This document shows, piece by piece, positions 5,016 through 31,048 of a stretch of DNA of 59,839 bases. The position numbers and the translations under genes were made by a program. The notes beneath the pieces are model-generated. The model searched no databases and was not told the origin of the DNA. It saw nothing but the letters and a program-made list of their open reading frames with translations. Every line of letters begins with the position of its first letter. The stretch's first letter is position 1. Where the stretch lies: IMG/VR virus record IMGVR_UViG_3300019487_000018, positions 133,459 through 193,297 of that record. The stretch is one strand, 5' to 3'. This DNA is from a virus.

Positions 5016-5647
5016 ACTTCTACAAATTGTGGGCGTATCCAATTTACACATGCGAAAACGTTCTCCTCGACACCGAACGTCAGCAGGTGGCCGACTATGT
5101 GCTACATCGATTCAAAGATCTGGACGACGACAAAATAGTCAACGTTCACGTTGCTGTTGATGGCGAGTTGGACAAAATTCCAAGCGATCTAAAGCTGTTG
5201 TATTACGCATTGTATGTGAAGTTTTCTCAATATGTCTTCGAATGCGGAAATCCTCTTGAAGAGTACTTTCTTCACAGGATTGCTATGAATAAGACTCGCG
5301 CATTCGTTCCAGGACGAGACGAAGGTGTGATTTATGAATTGCACGCGGACGATAGCGTGAATGACATTACATGCGTCTACTACGCTCAAATCGATACAGT
5401 ACACGCTAATGGTGGTAGTGCCGGCGGCGACCTGCGAATCTACAACCGAGCGGTGCTCGACACAACCGATGATACACGCGAAGCGTATGTCACTTGCAAA
5501 CCAGTTGACAATAAAGCAGTAATGTTCCCGGGCAGTTTGATTCACGAGGTTCGTCCATATTTTGGTGAGCGTCCTCGAGTTAGTCTAAACTACAAGTTTC
5601 GTCGTTACCGCAGGAACATCTCTTTGAAACCAAAGCTGGTAATATGA
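5012..5647 (+). CDS. 2OG-Fe(II) oxygenase
   Basis: HAD, GGDL, NKAVMFPGSLIHEVRP, RVSLN. Paralogous to the upstream gene; ATGA overlaps. Confidence 0.85.
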   Translation: MNFYKLWAYPIYTCENVLLDTERQQVADYVLHRFKDLDDDKIVNVHVAVDGELDKIPSDLKLLYYALYVKFSQYVFECGNPLEEYFLHRIAMNKTRAFVPGRDEGVIYELHADDSVNDITCVYYAQIDTVHANGGSAGGDLRIYNRAVLDTTDDTREAYVTCKPVDNKAVMFPGSLIHEVRPYFGERPRVSLNYKFRRYRRNISLKPKLVI

Positions 5648-6588
5648 AACCAGTCACTCTATCAATCAATCCACTGTATCTGTGCAACTTTCGGTGCAAG
5701 TTTTGTTATCTAACACCAGAACAACTTGCAGACAAGAAGAAAATCGATCATGTCCGTCTTGACCAAATGCTCTCTGAGGTCACAATGGTTACGGCAATCC
5801 AACACGTTGACTTGTACGGTGGAGAAATTGCACTGCTTTCCGATGAGTACTTTGATGATATGAAGCGGATCATCCGACAGTACTACTACAAGCCGATCAA
5901 CGTTGTCACTAACCTGTCGAGAGTTCCGAAATTTTTCATGCCACCTGACATTCAATTGTCCGTGAGTTTTGATTTCGATTGTCGCGAACGGTACGAAGAA
6001 GTGTACAGAAACATGGCAACTGTTCAGAAGCCGCTGCATGTTCTGGTTTTAGCTAGCAGGTGCTTAATCGACAAAGACGTCGACTACATGATTATGATGC
6101 TGAACACATTACAAAATGTTCGGACAGTTGAGATCAAACCGTATAGCACGAATCAAGCAAACCAACATACCGTGTCGCACGCAGACTTCGAACGATTCGT
6201 TAAACGTTGGTTGACGAGTCGGATTCCAAAACGATTTGCGTTTATCAACGAGCAGAAGATTATCGAAGCGCTTCGCGGATCGTACAACGCATTTAGTGAT
6301 GACCATGTCTATATCACCCCTAATGGCAAGTTTGCGGTGCTTGATTTCGACGAGAGCGATCACGAGAAGTTCACAGAGCTCGACCACTTTGTGGACTATG
6401 TCCGGTGGACAGAACATGAGAAACAACTAATCGGAAGCAATTCATACTGCCAAACCTGTCCATATTTCGGTCACTGTTTGACAGAACACTATCGTTGGGT
6501 GAAAGATCTCGAAAACTCGTGCAATGGTTACAGGTTCCTTTTGGATTGGTGCAATGAAAGAATGGAAAATCCGGCAGCAAATCTATGA
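5644..6588 (+). CDS. Radical SAM protein with C-terminal Cys cluster
   Basis: CNFRCKFC, YGGE, and CQTCPYFGHC...C. Confidence 0.9.
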   Translation: MKPVTLSINPLYLCNFRCKFCYLTPEQLADKKKIDHVRLDQMLSEVTMVTAIQHVDLYGGEIALLSDEYFDDMKRIIRQYYYKPINVVTNLSRVPKFFMPPDIQLSVSFDFDCRERYEEVYRNMATVQKPLHVLVLASRCLIDKDVDYMIMMLNTLQNVRTVEIKPYSTNQANQHTVSHADFERFVKRWLTSRIPKRFAFINEQKIIEALRGSYNAFSDDHVYITPNGKFAVLDFDESDHEKFTELDHFVDYVRWTEHEKQLIGSNSYCQTCPYFGHCLTEHYRWVKDLENSCNGYRFLLDWCNERMENPAANL

Positions 6589-6982
6589 TCGTACGTGGCA
6601 CGACCACGATGACTTGGTCTGCCATTCAAAGATCATTGACACCAGTGAACTGGGATTTGATCCCAGCTTTGCAGGCAAAGTTGGTTCATATTTTATGTGG
6701 GAATGGGATGTTCTCGTCTATCCGGAGAAGTCGTATGCAGTTGCAATGGTTTACGCAAAACTGCTCGAGAAATACTTCGGTGAGAACTTCTATGAGGTGT
6801 TAGACGATCAAGATTTGTTGCTTGGCGACAAGTACTTTGTTCGCTACAGCAAAAACAAAGAATGGTACGACAAGTTGATCGCAACTATGGACGAATGGAA
6901 ATTGTGGGACTTTGAAAACAGCAAGTTACCGCAGGTTCAGGCGACCATCACGTACTTTAAGAAGGAGTTTCAGCTGATCTAA
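6554..6982 (+). CDS. Hypothetical protein ending the radical SAM operon
   Basis: ORF overlaps the previous gene; rich in aromatic and acidic residues. Confidence 0.7.
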   Translation: MKEWKIRQQIYDRTWHDHDDLVCHSKIIDTSELGFDPSFAGKVGSYFMWEWDVLVYPEKSYAVAMVYAKLLEKYFGENFYEVLDDQDLLLGDKYFVRYSKNKEWYDKLIATMDEWKLWDFENSKLPQVQATITYFKKEFQLI

Positions 6983-6999
6983 TCGGGTAGGGAAGTCCA

Positions 7000-7007
7000 T
7001 ATAAATA
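7000..7007 (+). promoter_or_regulatory. T4-like late promoter TATAAATA
   Basis: Exact T4 late consensus just upstream of the HNH start. The core TAAATA recurs before many genes. Confidence 0.65.
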
Positions 7008-25439: not shown

Positions 25440-27154
25440 TATAACTCTCGTTGTTCATACGTTGCCAGTATTTGTGCATCTATCATTTCTGCACGCAAAT
25501 CTGCATCAAGTACATCAATGATATTCAGTCTGTTCGGCTGTGTCATCTGTGCGGTGAAATCATACATTGTGAGATCAACCATCCGTCCGTAGTGTTGGTT
25601 TACTGCAGCACGGTTGGGATCCATTACAATGGGGAATTTTCCACCTTTGACGTAGTATACAGCATCATAGCTTTGTTGAGCACGAAGACATTTCATGTAG
25701 TACTCGTTTAAGTACTGATCGAAACGGTTTTCTCGACCAAGCCAAATCACAGCATAAGCAAAGAGGTCAGCATATGTTCTTTCAGTGAACACAACACCTG
25801 TTCGTCTTTGATATTTGCGATCGTTACTTGATGTGTGTAGCACTCTTTCTGCGTCATGCTCATCTTTGTATTTTCGAGCAAGAATTTCGTTTTGGAATTT
25901 TACGACGAGATCGGGATCTTTAATGATGTCTTCAAGAGACATTCCCCACTCACTTTGAATTGACCGTGATGTTTTTCGTTCGATTATGCGATAGCCTTTG
26001 GCCTCAAGTCTTTTTAGAATTGTTGTGTTGTGCGTAACGATGTAATCGTCCGTGATGTATAAATGTTCAGGATCGTCGATTGCTATACACCACACCTCTT
26101 CTTTACCTTTGTAAGTAATGTCTGAAATCCTGCGTGTGAGCAGTAAACTTCCGTTTTTGTGTCCTTCAAAGTGAGAGGAACGACAACGATCTTTTTTTCT
26201 GGGGAGTGAAAATACACTAGAAGGATTTGGCAACTTTAGAGCAATTTCATATGCAATGAGACCACTGTGAAGCTTGTCTTTGTACTTGTACACAGGGTGT
26301 CTTTCACTAATCGTTGCTACTCCGCCGAGCGACCAAACAATGTCCTGTACGTCTCTTGCGAGTGCATAACTAGTTGTGGTAAACGTTGTAGAGGAGCCAT
26401 TACTACTCACAGTTCCGTCTGTGTCCATCAACCCTTGAAGTAATTTCAGCCTATCGTTTGGTGGTCCATTTTTATATGCATTAGGAACAAACTTTTCTGG
26501 CGACTTTTTCATCAGATCGTAGTTCTCAAATGCACGTATATACTTGTTATTATGTTTTCCCTCATGACCAAGTCGATACGAGATCGATGTACCTTGTTGA
26601 ACAAAGTTATAACCAGAATCGAGTAACTTACTGCACTCATGTAAAATATGTGTATCTGTTGTTGTAAGAAGTACAGATTCCGATGTTAAAGACCCGTCTC
26701 CAAGAAGACACCCCAACAAATAGGGAGGTATGTCATATTGATGATTATTGTCGTTCAAATATGGTGTAACCAGTGGTATTGACAGATTTGTCCCCCACTG
26801 CTTTCTTGTTTTTTGTCTCTGCATGTAAGCACTCATGCTGAGTGTGGTCATTACTTCTTGTTTCAATCGATAAAATGATTTGTTGTTTTTTTTCGTGTAT
26901 TGACCATACGAACACTTCCACAAATGATCTCCACACGCCTCTGTTTTCCCGCCATCGTGTGTGGTAATAATGTACACATCTTTCACACCTTGAGGGAAAA
27001 TTCCAATGATAGGTGCAGAATGACCATTTGGTGTAATCACTCGATCTTTACAGGTAAGCTCCCCTATACACTTCCATCCTGTTTCACATAGTACTTTCGA
27101 GTGTAGAGGTTGAGCCTTGCCTGACCCCTGTGAGCCAGAAATTGCCACCAGCAT
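25439..27154 (-). CDS. P-loop nucleotide kinase/NTPase interrupted by an intein
   Basis: The spliced product reads GSQGSGK|TT (Walker A). The C-extein has the kinase-like ERTYAD motif. Confidence 0.85.
   Translation of the reverse strand: MLVAISGSQGSGKAQPLHSKVLCETGWKCIGELTCKDRVITPNGHSAPIIGIFPQGVKDVYIITTHDGGKTEACGDHLWKCSYGQYTKKNNKSFYRLKQEVMTTLSMSAYMQRQKTRKQWGTNLSIPLVTPYLNDNNHQYDIPPYLLGCLLGDGSLTSESVLLTTTDTHILHECSKLLDSGYNFVQQGTSISYRLGHEGKHNNKYIRAFENYDLMKKSPEKFVPNAYKNGPPNDRLKLLQGLMDTDGTVSSNGSSTTFTTTSYALARDVQDIVWSLGGVATISERHPVYKYKDKLHSGLIAYEIALKLPNPSSVFSLPRKKDRCRSSHFEGHKNGSLLLTRRISDITYKGKEEVWCIAIDDPEHLYITDDYIVTHNTTILKRLEAKGYRIIERKTSRSIQSEWGMSLEDIIKDPDLVVKFQNEILARKYKDEHDAERVLHTSSNDRKYQRRTGVVFTERTYADLFAYAVIWLGRENRFDQYLNEYYMKCLRAQQSYDAVYYVKGGKFPIVMDPNRAAVNQHYGRMVDLTMYDFTAQMTQPNRLNIIDVLDADLRAEMIDAQILATYEQREL
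26027..27115 (-). mobile_element. Class-3 (Ala1, WCT) intein with LAGLIDADG homing endonuclease, 363 aa
   Basis: Starts AQPL; block B HLW; block F VWCIAI; ends VTHN|T. LAGLIDADG-like motifs LGCLLGDG and LQGLMDTDG. Confidence 0.9.
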
Positions 27155-27397: not shown

Positions 27398-27608
27398 AGA
27401 GGAGGAAAGTCGAAAAATCAACAAGTGCCTTTACAATCCTTCAAGATGGCAATTACATGCCCTTGACAACAAACAACGTTTGCTCTAGGCAGGGGTCAAC
27501 GAACAACCAACAAAGGTCTAAGTTTAAATCCCTGCAAACAATCGCAGTCCATGTTTTGTGATCTATTTTCTGCACCAGTTTGTGTGCAGCACGAAGTGTG
27601 AGTTCCAT
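27398..27608 (-). pseudogene. Deleted remnant of the 28912-29490 gene fused to the 3' part of its associated RNA
   Basis: 27608 onward encodes MELTLRAAHKLVQKI with a matching leader (CTCAACTCAAGGA). The 3' part resembles the 3' end of the 28672-28913 element. Confidence 0.7.
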
Positions 27609-27742
27609 GGATACTTTTCCTTGAGTTGAGGAGGTCTATACTACGGGGTAAAACCTAATCAGACAACTTTTTACAAACGTGAGCGTCTGAGATTGTTGAA
27701 GATCTGCTGTGTTGCTTCCCTCTTTGAAGGGACAAATTCCAT

Positions 27743-27819
27743 TGGTCGGAGTGGCAGGATTTGAACCCGCGTCTTCCACGTCCCAAACGTGGCCGTCTAC
27801 CAGACTGGCTTACACTCCG
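27743..27819 (-). tRNA. tRNA-Pro(UGG)
   Basis: Cloverleaf CGGAGTG...; anticodon arm CCACG-TTTGGGA-CGTGG; GGTTCAAATCC; encoded CCA. Confidence 0.93.
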
Positions 27820-27829
27820 ATGGTCAAGT

Positions 27830-27894
27830 AACAACCAAACGAGACCAATCGTCTGTAGGTGTTTTGCTAATGGATTTAGTCGTTACCGACTTTT
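27830..27894 (-). ncRNA. Partial copy of a candidate structured ncRNA
   Basis: Homologous to 30365-30430, with compensatory changes in its hairpins. Confidence 0.55.
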
Positions 27895-27900
27895 ATCCCT

Positions 27901-27939
27901 TTTGCCGCACCCGTGCGAGCCGGAAATAGCTACGAGCAT
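27901..27939 (-). pseudogene. 13-codon fragment of a second kinase allele (MLVAISGSHGCGK)
   Basis: 11 of 13 residues identical to the N-extein at 27154; differences mostly at third codon positions; RBS retained. Confidence 0.8.
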
Positions 27940-27948
27940 TGTTATCCT

Positions 27949-28659
27949 TTAGTCAATGTACGCGAAACGCGTCTCTAAGAGTGTTGGTCGTTGCACAACC
28001 GAGGTTAGAAATTTCAACGCTTCACCATTGCACATTTTATATCCGTATGATCCATATTTGACTGCCCGAGACAACGATGCGGCTGGAAACGTTAGTTTGT
28101 GAACTGCAAGTTTCTTATTGGCGATATCAAGCAATGTATAGTCCCCGACGATAATCGTCTCACCATCTGTTGCCAGCTGACAAATCGTGTAATCGAAACT
28201 ATCAAGTAAGTGTTCCACTGAGTCGTGGAAAAAATCACCGTGAATCAGCTGAATGTTGTACTTGTTTTTGTCTTAGGTGAAGTCAAAATTTGTAACGTGG
28301 CTAGTTTCGAGCGTTTTTGTAAACAATCGCTTGTTATCTTTTAGACGAAGAACAGGAAAAAGAACAGGAAAGATATTGTCCGCAATCTCATCCACACCTG
28401 ATCCTTCAATCATACGGTGTTGAAAGATTTCATGTTGGTCTGCATTTTTGAAGAAGATGTCGAAGTCAGTTTCACACGATTTTCCTTCAACAGCTTGCCG
28501 CAGACATCCGCCGCCAAGCCAAGGACCATTCTCCAACGAAAATTCAACAGCTGTTTGGCGTTGCAAACTACCAAGCAGATGCTCGATATGTGCAACGATG
28601 CTGGTTACCTTGTTTGGATGTAAGTGTTGAATTAGTTCGTATAGTGGATATTTGATCAT
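27949..28659 (-). pseudogene. Nucleotidyltransferase (CCA/poly(A) polymerase head-like) with one in-frame TAA
   Basis: LGGGCLR...DFDIFF, then in the same frame IQLI...SFDYTICQ. TAA at 28273-28275. Confidence 0.75.
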
Positions 28660-28671
28660 ACGAAAATCATA

Positions 28672-28913
28672 GAGGAGCGGAGTAAAAAGTTCAACAGAAC
28701 CGTGACAATCCCTCAATCCTTCAACCAGCAATACGGTCTTGCGAGCCCAATCCTTCAACCAGCAAAATAGGGTTAATTGTATGGCTCGCCTTCAATGACC
28801 AATCCATCAGCTGTATGAGGTTTAGACCTCGATCTTACGCTGAACATCTCACCAGCAAGCTGGTGAGATGACGTTGTAAGGTGGTTTGTCTCCCTTCTTA
28901 CTCGCGCCGCCTC
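28672..28913 (-). ncRNA. Candidate ~240-nt structured RNA downstream of the coiled-coil gene
   Basis: 5' GAGG..GAGTAAGAAG pairs with 3' CTTTTTACTC..CCTC; perfect hairpin CATCTCACCAG/CTGGTGAGATG; 18-nt direct repeat at 28714-28731 and 28748-28765. Confidence 0.6.
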
Positions 28914-29490
28914 AAATCAGCTTCTCGTCCGACAGAACAATAACGTGAGTCTGTGGTAGCACGAGAGTGTTCGCAAGATTCTTGTGAAGAAGCGCATCTT
29001 CGATGGTTTCTGCTTGGCGACGGTATCCAGCAATCTCATGCTCCATACGTTCACGATTGCTGATGAGCGAGAAGTTCACGACATCAGCACGATAGCTCTC
29101 ACCAGCGGCTTCTTGGGCGCGCGCGATTTGACGTTGAAGGGCTTCTGGTGTTGACACATACTGCTCACGAAGGACAGACACGAGCCGTCCCAATAGCTGA
29201 GCACGATCAACAACATCTTTGCGTTCTGAGACAAGTTGGTTGATCCCTTCGCGCTCATTGATTGCGCGAATGGTGTCGCGAATAAACGTGCGGATAGTCA
29301 TCAGATCTTCAACGCGAGCGATCTTGTCTTCGAATTCTTGCATCCGATCTTGGTACAGGTGTTCGACAACGTCGCTATCATTATCAACGTCAAACACGTT
29401 GATCGTAGCGATTGGGTTGATTTGGATTGCGTGGATTTGTTGGGTGATCTTGTCAACCAACTTGTGTGCAGCACGGAGGGTCAGTTCCAT
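28912..29490 (-). CDS. Coiled-coil protein, possibly a distant DIP1984/DUF6847-like member
   Basis: AGGAG RBS; helical heptads with the pattern LxxAxKL...IRxxIxxxNxxxGI...IEDxLxxxN. Family link is from memory of the pattern only. Confidence 0.7.
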   Translation of the reverse strand: MELTLRAAHKLVDKITQQIHAIQINPIATINVFDVDNDSDVVEHLYQDRMQEFEDKIARVEDLMTIRTFIRDTIRAINEREGINQLVSERKDVVDRAQLLGRLVSVLREQYVSTPEALQRQIARAQEAAGESYRADVVNFSLISNRERMEHEIAGYRRQAETIEDALLHKNLANTLVLPQTHVIVLSDEKLI

Positions 29491-29531
29491 GAAATGTTCT
29501 CCTTGAGTTGAGGGATTGTATCCTACAAGGG

Positions 29532-29798
29532 TCAATGAAGTTCGACAACAGCGTATCGAGTTTTTTCAAGCAACTCGTCAAACGCGGCGTTAACAGTAGT
29601 GCTGTCTAGACGGAAACCAGCTCCTTCTTGTGGTCGTCCGTCATCGTCACAAGGCACACAATACATGCCGTTTCGACCTTCCATTACTGTAAAGCCAAAC
29701 AATGCAATCAGGCGCTTTTTTGCTGTCAACAGACAATCGACGTTGTCAAGGACGAGTTGGTCCTCTTCAAAATCAAGGTTCGTTGCTAGGTACTTCAT
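29532..29798 (-). CDS. Hypothetical protein
   Basis: 88-aa ORF in the minus-strand run. Confidence 0.55.
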   Translation of the reverse strand: MKYLATNLDFEEDQLVLDNVDCLLTAKKRLIALFGFTVMEGRNGMYCVPCDDDGRPQEGAGFRLDSTTVNAAFDELLEKTRYAVVELH

Positions 29799-29819
29799 CG
29801 TGTGTTTTCTTCGTATCGC

Positions 29820-30044
29820 TCACGAAGCGTTGGTTGGTCCATTATCTTCTCGAATAATTGTTAGAGCCTGCGATTTCTGAAGATCAGGCAGAAGACCTTC
29901 AGACACTGTTAGGCGCCACGTTCCGTCGGCAAGTGGGTCGAAGTGGAGAAATTCATTCTGGATCTTTAGAATCGTAAACCTTGAGATCTCTATTGTACGA
30001 CCTGTTCCTTCAAAACGAAACGTTCGACGAACGTTATTGGCCAT
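29820..30044 (-). CDS. Hypothetical protein
   Basis: ORF starting MANNVRRTF, in the minus-strand run. Confidence 0.5.
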   Translation of the reverse strand: MANNVRRTFRFEGTGRTIEISRFTILKIQNEFLHFDPLADGTWRLTVSEGLLPDLQKSQALTIIREDNGPTNAS

Positions 30045-30179
30045 ACTTAAGTACCACACGGCACTTCGAACAAATGAAGCACCACATCTTCTTGATTAGT
30101 TCTCCAACGTGGCCACATTGGTGGCATTTGACCGTGTTTTGATCTTGCGTCACCATTTGACGCCTCTTTTGCATGAATA

Positions 30180-30256
30180 TGGTCGGCGATGGAGGATTTG
30201 AACCTCCGGCCTCTTGCTCCCAAAGCAAGCAGTCTACCAGGCTGACCTAATCGCCG
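30180..30256 (-). tRNA. tRNA-Pro(UGG)
   Basis: CGGCGAT acceptor; anticodon arm CTTGC-TTTGGGA-GCAAG; GGTTCAAATCC; CCA. Confidence 0.93.
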
Positions 30257-30261
30257 AAACG

Positions 30262-30356
30262 TTCTTGAAATTCACAGCGTGTACTGCAGCGGCTTAGGCT
30301 CCCAATCGTAGCGATCTACTTGTGCACTTTCGATCTACCTTCGCTTGTTTCAAGAG
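30262..30356 (-). ncRNA. Candidate ~95-nt structured RNA between the tRNAs
   Basis: Terminal inverted repeat TCTTGAAA/TTTCAAGA with inner AGCG/CGCT; no credible ORF. Confidence 0.35.
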
Positions 30357-30360
30357 TTTC

Positions 30361-30484
30361 AAACAACAACCAAATCAGGATCAATGATTTGTGGACGTTT
30401 TGCTTACGGATATAGCCGTTACCGACTTTTTCGTCCGTTCGCTAAGGACGTGTCTTACTTCACCCTAGGAGGTCCATTGTTGTT
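30361..30484 (-). ncRNA. Candidate ~125-nt structured RNA directly 3' of tRNA-Ala
   Basis: Closing stem AACAACAA/TTGTTGTT; TGGAC/GTCCA; CGTCC/GGACG; AGTCG-GTAA-CGGCT; CAAATCA/TGATTTG. Confidence 0.6.
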
Positions 30485-30558
30485 TGGTGGAGGATGAGAG
30501 AGTCGAACTCTCGAGTACGCCGTGCAAAGGCGTCAGTTTCCCACTAGCTTAATCCCCC
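30485..30558 (-). tRNA. tRNA-Ala(UGC)
   Basis: GGGGGAT/ATCCTCC acceptor with G3:U70; anticodon arm ACGCC-TTTGCAC-GGCGT; CCA. Confidence 0.92.
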
Positions 30559-30766
30559 AAGGTCCATATTCCAGCATGTAATGACAAATTGCACATAAGA
30601 CTACACACTTTTCAATTTCTTGCCTAAGTTTCTCAAACGCTATGAACCAGCGTGAAGAAACAGCAAATTCTCCTATTTAAGGAGAGTGTAAAGCGAATTC
30701 GGGTCTGCCGCCTCCACCAGTTAGTTTTACGAAACTAACAAACTATTTAGGGATGTTACAGAAATA

Positions 30767-31048
30767 TCATTCAAGGGACAACGGGGTATTGTCAATCTGC
30801 CACTGAGTGTACAAAACAATTACCTTGAGTTCGACGTCTTTTTGATCCAAACTCGTGTAGACTAGCACGTCGAGTTTGTCTGTCTTGTGTTTGATTCGGA
30901 AGATGATTCGTCCGAAATCATCCTCGTGCTGCTTCCACATAGAGATCGATTTGCGGCTGATATCCTTACACGCCAGGATTGTTTGCTTGCCAGGAGCAGT
31001 GTCAAGGATCGCGCCAAAGGTGAAGAAATCGCTCATTTCAAATCGCAC
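30767..31048 (-). CDS. Hypothetical protein
   Basis: ORF coupled to the macro-domain gene. Confidence 0.55.
   Translation of the reverse strand: MRFEMSDFFTFGAILDTAPGKQTILACKDISRKSISMWKQHEDDFGRIIFRIKHKTDKLDVLVYTSLDQKDVELKVIVLYTQWQIDNTPLSLE

Follow-up and report, generated by a model that had tools for sequence, protein, structure and literature searches.

The window, by which we mean the whole stretch of DNA analyzed here, is the final 59.8 kb of a 193-kb IMG/VR virus record (CheckV completeness, 56%; G+C content, 46.5%). It encodes rIIA and rIIB, and gp32 and a RecA/UvsX-type gene are present in the nearest metagenomic relatives, which together identify the source as a large T4-like phage. 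No close relative of this phage was found in GenBank, where the best match to its rIIA is ~34% identical. The whole contig carries three tRNA genes, all on the minus strand and all called by ARAGORN and by the Rfam tRNA model: tRNA-Ala(UGC) with an encoded CCA at 30485 to 30558, and two copies of tRNA-Pro(UGG), copy A at 30180 to 30256 and copy B at 27743 to 27819, which are 73% identical to each other. Directly downstream of tRNA-Ala on the same strand lies the 124-nt element that is the subject of this report (copy A, 30361 to 30484), which scores 143.9 bits against a covariance model of the family (R1). Its first base, 30484, is the base immediately following the encoded CCA, just as the original prediction, made from the DNA letters of this locus, had placed it.

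A consensus scan matched a sigma-70-like promoter, TTGACA-18-AATGAT, upstream of tRNA-Ala at 30766 to 30795 on the minus strand (10 of 12 positions), and the relatives described below carry TTGATT-17-TACAAT just before their tRNA-Ala; both are motif matches only. A simple scan found no terminator between tRNA-Ala and tRNA-Pro in the relative. Because promoter-like sites stand upstream and no terminator was found between the tRNAs, the element most likely forms part of a shared precursor. No convincing match to a MotA box or a late promoter was seen by eye inside the element. Separately, positions 30652 to 30747 (minus strand), between the promoter-like site and tRNA-Ala, match the Rfam wcaG RNA over its full length below threshold (26.3 bits against a cutoff of 42; E = 0.004 in a local search), with three hairpins and the UAGUUU and UGGUG motifs retained; the relatives have just ~50 nt at that place and therefore lack the match.

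Orthologues and the shortened second copy

Five DNA patterns searched against IMG/VR, and two each against JGI metagenomes and GTDB genomes, gave either no hit or chance matches within coding DNA; the early ones demanded GCAAAAC and AAAGTCGG, which was too strict, as the real relatives have GCAAAAU and AACGUCGG. In blastn against GenBank phages, tRNA-Pro was the sole match, and no close protein relatives were found in IMG/VR. The orthologues were reached through a 192-aa protein encoded downstream of tRNA-Pro (starting MELTLRAAHKLV), for which a relative at 46% identity and the members of its cluster led to five contigs (L042 to L044 from JGI, L045 and L046 from ENA). All five contain a full-length orthologue directly after tRNA-Ala-CCA. 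Their gene order is tRNA-Ala-CCA, spacer, tRNA-Pro, MELTL gene, Gad2-like nucleotidyltransferase (NTase), kinase, and FolE2, and no duplication of the unit was seen in any of these contigs.

Copy A is orthologous to L043:5285-5408 and L045:2569-2692 at 77.6% identity, and the two variants found in the relatives are one base apart. Between the window and the relative, tRNA-Ala is 70% identical, the neighboring genes are 61 to 64% identical in nucleotide sequence, and the remainder of the spacer between tRNA-Ala and tRNA-Pro is 45% identical. The zero-base spacing between CCA and element is also conserved in the relatives, and the suggested link to tRNA processing, which had been put forward on positional grounds, would seem to be strengthened on those same grounds.

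The second part of the spacer (30257 to 30360, minus strand) was aligned with the relatives, and its overall identity is just the 45% given above. It contains a conserved block, UUGGGA..AAGCC.CUGCAGUACACGYUGUG, at 30257 to 30330 (minus strand), with its counterpart at L043:5505-5601, where ARAGORN, run at a relaxed threshold, reports a weak tRNA-like structure; this block could represent either a decayed tRNA or another structured element. The tRNA-Pro that follows (copy A, 30180 to 30256) is 97% identical to L043:5602-5678, against 70% for tRNA-Ala and ~46 to 55% for the proteins, and this high identity reflects either uneven conservation or recent exchange.

The R1 model detects copy A, the relatives, and copy B. 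In the contigs reached via the NTase and MELTL proteins (L030 to L041, L047 to L050, L057, and L058), R1 and nhmmer found no element. Two of these, the complete records L040 and L041, keep the tRNA-Ala/tRNA-Pro/MELTL neighborhood, with 406 nt between the two tRNAs that are not alignable with the element, and one relative has tRNA-Pro without tRNA-Ala or the element. At L040:8683-9088 (equivalent to L041:3758-4163), the tRNA-Ala lacks an encoded CCA and the MELTL protein is 29% identical; the first ~150 nt of that spacer can fold into a closed multibranch domain with a GAAA hairpin, although with a z-score of −1.3 for a single sequence this does not amount to evidence. As far as the searched collections and methods show, the family is narrow and belongs to one clade of environmental phages.

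A second copy of the element (copy B) occupies 27824 to 27900 on the minus strand and comprises the 3' two-thirds, that is, helices P2, P3, and P4 and the 3' strand of P1 as defined in the next section. The original prediction described two diverged copies sharing a core at 27830 to 27894. Two diverged copies do exist (27843 to 27894 versus 30379 to 30430 at 79% in a repeat search; 30430 to 30359 versus 27894 to 27824 at 78% in sensitive blastn), and the similarity at the proposed core is present, but the true extent of copy B is 27900 to 27824, and the copies differ in makeup, a kinase remnant (27940 to 27902) having replaced the 5' third of copy B. The homologue in the relatives includes the 5' half that copy B is missing. 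Copy B was left out of the R1 model, which nonetheless scores it at 62.1 bits (E ~1e-11). The proposed tRNA linkage holds for copy A, downstream of tRNA-Ala, but takes another form in copy B, which lies just upstream of a tRNA-Pro, ending 4 to 6 nt before tRNA-Pro copy B; that tRNA begins ~16 nt after P4. A candidate 5' strand of P1 for copy B (AUAACAA) was set aside as possibly fortuitous, being intergenic between the NTase and kinase genes, where the relative's sequence is different. A T-box-like pairing between the P4 loop and the 3' end of tRNA-Pro, seen in copy B, was likewise rejected, as it is not conserved in copy A.

The 39 bases of the remnant (27902 to 27940, minus strand), which stand in place of the 5' third of copy B, form 13 codons for MLVAISGSHGCGK, the start of a P-loop kinase whose intact, intein-bearing form begins at 27154. 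By manual count, the differences between the remnant and the intact kinase start fall mostly at third codon positions (9/10), and 9 of the 13 third codon positions differ. The relatives have a single, intact, intein-less kinase directly after the NTase gene. From the third-position differences and this single kinase, we infer that the two units diverged as working genes and were joined later, and the sequence comparison indicates that they most likely diverged in different phages. Third positions are near saturation between the units, and the core identity of 75 to 78% therefore indicates constraint. The junction between the remnant and copy B falls between GGCAAA and AGGGA (27895 to 27905, minus strand) and points to microhomology, since the kinase codons GGC AAA resemble AGCAAG/AGCGAA in the element. 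Its sequence suggests that illegitimate recombination took place here through microhomology, at the codon that bears the intein in the intact kinase. Copy B is thus probably a fragment of an orthologue from a diverged third lineage, recently shortened and fused to a truncated kinase through illegitimate recombination.

Fold, strand, and covariation

The element folds into a closing helix, P1, and three arms, namely P5, a long P2/P3 arm capped by GUAA, and P4, which meet in a four-way junction (all coordinates are on the minus strand). This extends the original prediction: the element includes the 5' half of the long copy as well, and its two ends pair with each other. The 5' strand of P1, AAACAACAAU (30476 to 30485), makes ten pairs with 30361 to 30370 (GUUGUUGUUU). 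The helix takes in A76 of tRNA-Ala (30485), and the RNAalifold consensus adds C75. Across the lineages, pairs in P1 change from A-U to G-C on both sides, from C-G to U.G or U-A, and from U.G to C-G. P5 (30445 to 30466) pairs AGGGUG with CGUCCU around the loop AAGUAAGACA in a hand alignment; there, the relatives have UAGGCG/CGUCUG and the loop AAGUAAGGUA, with two pairs changed on both sides and AAGUAAG conserved within the loop. P5 is the least secure helix because it was picked after the relatives had been seen.

In the long arm (30402 to 30442), P2 (GC..ACGGA/UCCGU..GC) encloses P3 (AGUCG-GUAA-CGGCU), with the GNRA loop at 30419 to 30422. P2 shows a C-G to G-C change on both sides. The P3 hairpin, proposed earlier as AGUCG-GUAA-CGRCU, does keep its pairing through a change from U.G to U-A, and its outermost pair is broken in the relatives. 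P4 (CAAAUCA-UUGAUCC-UGAUUUG, 30371 to 30391) directly adjoins the 3' strand of P1 and retains seven pairs in all lineages, three of them changing on both sides. Between copies A and B, 5 of the 14 stem bases of P4 differ and all 7 pairs are kept; the compensatory changes noted earlier between CAAAUCA/UGAUUUG and CAGACGA/UCGUUUG are confirmed, two pairs being altered in both bases and a third in a single base. The unpaired stretches GGAC, GAAGUAAG, UAGC, and AGCAAAA are conserved.

Several tests bear on whether these pairings exceed chance. When copy A was mutated at random with the observed number of changes, only 0.1 to 0.2% of trials preserved the 12 pairs that make up the GUAA and 3' hairpins while also producing two or more compensatory pairs. 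The hand alignment, which was built by coordinates and on which P5 was defined, covers 35 pairs; 7 changes affect both sides, 6 affect one side and remain compatible, and 3 cells are broken. These small counts come from three independent lineages, two of them in one genome, with P5 chosen with the sequences in view. In a model-fitted alignment, 97% of cells pair, versus 27 to 51% when the 3' partners are slid by 1 to 3 columns; changes on both sides occur in 7 pairs, versus 0 to 2 when slid; and none of 500 shuffles reached the observed values. The model-fitted alignment leans toward structure, and a less biased single-fold test was therefore added, in which the minimum free energy (MFE) fold of copy A alone was compared with random mutation, giving p ~0.007 on the relative and ~0.002 on copy B. 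The MFE folds of the individual sequences have P1, P2/P3, and P4 in common, RNAalifold recovers P1, P2, P3, and P4, and the folding z-scores are modest (−2.6, −1.1, and −1.4). The covariation first noticed between the two copies thus extends to a larger set, to which the orthologues add changes on both sides in P1, P2, P4, and P5. The sequence and the secondary structure of the element are conserved over three diverged lineages, which support five helices in all.

Each sequence contains 4 to 7 G-U pairs that would become A-C mismatches if read on the other strand; this supports a minus-strand RNA, as had been proposed, and excludes a plus-strand one. Substitutions in the element are distributed 10/8/12 by codon phase and show no three-base period, a 1-nt indel separates the lineages, and the only short frame lacks its ATG in one relative. 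The indel, the absent periodicity, and the loss of the ATG rule out protein-coding sequence on either strand. The element is real, conserved, structured, and noncoding, and it represents an RNA family that is new, though of a general type already known.

It is conceivable that P4 and the U/G-rich tract behind it (UUUGGUUGUU) act as a weak terminator or attenuator that blocks or tunes read-through from tRNA-Ala into tRNA-Pro and the downstream genes. The tract is U-rich and invariant, and a simple terminator scan flags P4 of copy B as terminator-like. We consider this highly improbable, however, since P4 has just 2 to 3 G-C pairs, copy A and the relatives are not flagged, and the tract covaries as the 3' strand of P1. 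Moreover, the short distance from P4 to tRNA-Pro in copy B leaves no room for a separate promoter, so that this tRNA needs read-through, and the conserved 5' half of the element would go unexplained.

A cis-acting module that processes or insulates the tRNAs deserves more weight, although we still think it unlikely. The element would then set the 3' end of tRNA-Ala and keep the two tRNAs folding independently, and the excised RNA would have no function; pairing of the CA of CCA and the next bases in P1 may present a site to RNase E, RNase III, or RNase P. Such a module is consistent with the conserved zero-base spacing, the reach of P1 to the terminal CA of the tRNA in the RNAalifold consensus, the further conserved blocks throughout the spacer, and the fact that copy B, too, adjoins a tRNA. 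Yet a simple spacer needs no conserved unpaired stretches, GNRA loop, or four helices; L057 manages without the element; L040 has an unrelated 406-nt spacer; and in T4-type tRNA dimers, processing takes place with just a few bases between the tRNAs. The closed fold of four helices, its GNRA loop, and its invariant unpaired stretches favor an RNA that folds as a discrete unit over a passive spacer. A compact tertiary structure that might bind a protein or another RNA is suggested by the GNRA loop and the conserved unpaired stretches.

Comparison with catalogued and phage-encoded RNAs

Scanning the window with Rfam 15 at gathering thresholds yielded no family matching the element, and a scan of 27600 to 30800 at E ≤ 10 with permissive filters yielded the three tRNAs and the weak wcaG-like match, which lies outside it. 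Consistent with the earlier failure to place the RNA in a known family, a scan of L043 from 5100 to 7000 gave tRNAs and chance-level hits only, the best of these being tmRNA_permuted (20.8 bits versus a cutoff of 47), which spans the T-arm and CCA of tRNA-Ala.

Two small RNAs of phage T4 resemble the element in size and placement. T4 rnaC (species 1, 139 nt) and rnaD (species 2, 119 nt) lie on the tRNA strand directly behind tRNA-Arg in a T4-type phage tRNA cluster, and the element is likewise placed; rnaD begins 1 to 2 nt after tRNA-Arg, the element 0 nt after the CCA of tRNA-Ala. Like the element, rnaC has a closing helix, with the last hairpin adjoining its 3' strand. However, MAFFT alignment showed no meaningful sequence similarity between either T4 RNA and the element, and R1 found no match in the T4 tRNA region (L010). 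T4 rnaC also has a tRNA-type T-arm (GGUUCGAAUCC) that the element lacks, and the partner tRNA differs (tRNA-Arg for the T4 RNAs, tRNA-Ala for the element). No function is known for rnaC or rnaD.

Topologically, the element also resembles a tRNA, with a four-way junction, cloverleaf connectivity, and a last arm that sits on the closing helix as the T-arm sits on the acceptor stem. It differs from a tRNA in its length (124 nt), in the size of its closing helix (10 bp) and last arm (7 bp), in the GNRA tetraloop at the place of the anticodon loop, and in the absence of a D-loop or T-loop signature. The cloverleaf-like topology (closing helix, three arms, last arm adjoining the 3' strand), along with the weak tRNA-like call that relaxed ARAGORN makes in the relative's neighboring spacer, might be taken to mean that the element, perhaps once a tRNA gene, is now decaying and functionless and owes its structure to its ancestor. 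We regard this as the least probable reading: with synonymous sites near saturation, the element is still more conserved than tRNA-Ala, three lineages show compensatory changes, and neither ARAGORN (default or relaxed) nor the Rfam tRNA model (RF00005) finds anything consistent within it.

Theta ribozymes are minimal HDV-like ribozymes located 3' of phage tRNAs in Caudoviricetes, for which a role in tRNA 3' maturation has been proposed (PMC10879173). In 77% of the tRNA-associated examples they cleave at a tRNA 3' end to within ±1 nt, just 4.5% of the associated tRNAs have an encoded CCA, and most come from gut phages, according to the 2024 paper describing them (PMC10879173). In the window and in L043 and L045, the element likewise starts at a tRNA 3' end; what it shares with the theta ribozymes is this position only. 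The theta fold is a nested double pseudoknot (P4, a J4/2 catalytic C, and a P2 3' strand after P1) with G1 as its first base. The element has no double pseudoknot, an A rather than a G as its first base, and no identifiable J4/2 catalytic C; its last conserved segment is the 3' strand of P1, and in copy B the tRNA-Pro follows within ~6 nt. HDV-type Rfam models gave no match on the element. The tRNA upstream of it has an encoded CCA, which most theta-associated tRNAs do not, and its phages come from environmental metagenomes, whereas theta ribozymes are mostly from gut phages.

Could the element nevertheless be a self-cleaving ribozyme of a new class, cutting at its own 5' boundary to make the 3' end of tRNA-Ala, as a functional parallel to the theta ribozymes? 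Its position matches theirs (PMC10879173), its compact multihelix fold has conserved junction bases, and phosphatase-like and nucleotidyltransferase genes lie close by. We judge this very unlikely all the same. No Rfam ribozyme family matches at E up to 10, the topology and first base are not those of a theta ribozyme, the encoded CCA is a feature of few theta-associated tRNAs (4.5%; PMC10879173), and charging would be blocked if the CCA ended in a 2',3'-cyclic phosphate. A broader version, in which the element is a catalytic or enzyme-guiding RNA that sets the CCA 3' end of tRNA-Ala in one step, either as a self-cleaving ribozyme or as a tRNA-shaped mimic recruiting RNase P or RNase III of the host to that end, has in our estimate a slim chance of being correct. 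If true, one-step definition of the CCA end would mean that the task proposed for theta ribozymes has been solved a second time, by an RNA of unrelated structure.

Proposed origin and role of the RNA

On balance, and with moderate confidence, we take the element to be a gene or gene-like module for a ~124-nt structured noncoding RNA of an uncatalogued family, carried by a narrow group of T4-like phages, all uncultivated, in their tRNA-Ala/tRNA-Pro transcription unit. An early-type promoter upstream of tRNA-Ala would drive a precursor containing tRNA-Ala, the element, and tRNA-Pro, and the cut that matures the 3' end of tRNA-Ala would also make the 5' end of the element. P1 would then protect both of its ends, with the consequence that a stable RNA may accumulate, like T4 rnaC and rnaD behind tRNA-Arg. 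We accordingly rank a stable processed RNA first, followed by the cis-acting processing module, the ribozyme, the terminator or attenuator, and the decaying tRNA remnant.

As to what such a stable RNA might do, the genes adjoining the element look like counterdefense and tRNA repair genes. Given these neighbors, one may speculate that the RNA acts in trans as a decoy or scaffold; this is a guess, and the data do not favor a trans-acting over a cis-acting role.

Ever since T4 rnaC and rnaD were described, phage tRNA clusters have been known to contain small stable RNAs, and the theta ribozymes are proof that an RNA located immediately behind a phage tRNA can have a function. The element is a third, unrelated RNA at the position held by these two. 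It is located among likely counterdefense and tRNA-related genes. Because it is known from so narrow a range of phages, its general importance is uncertain. Its defined fold of four helices and its natural sequence variants make it a concrete candidate for structure probing, cleavage tests, and pulldowns.

Three further observations concern the surrounding genes. The Gad2-like NTase gene (28758 to 27949, minus strand) carries a nonsense change, GAA to TAA, at 28275 in this assembly; L007 and L008, which represent the same phage (99.97 to 99.99% identical), have G there, and their 269-aa NTase frame is intact. A noncoding stretch of ~250 nt in the interval between the MELTL and NTase genes is common to the relatives (28672 to 28911 on the minus strand; L043:6583-6839; L009:680-923). 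Finally, 27494 to 27510 on the plus strand, within a MELTL gene remnant, is a third copy of the 17-mer GGTCAACGAACAACCAA that forms the 3' tail of the element, and it is 88% identical to 27822 to 27838.
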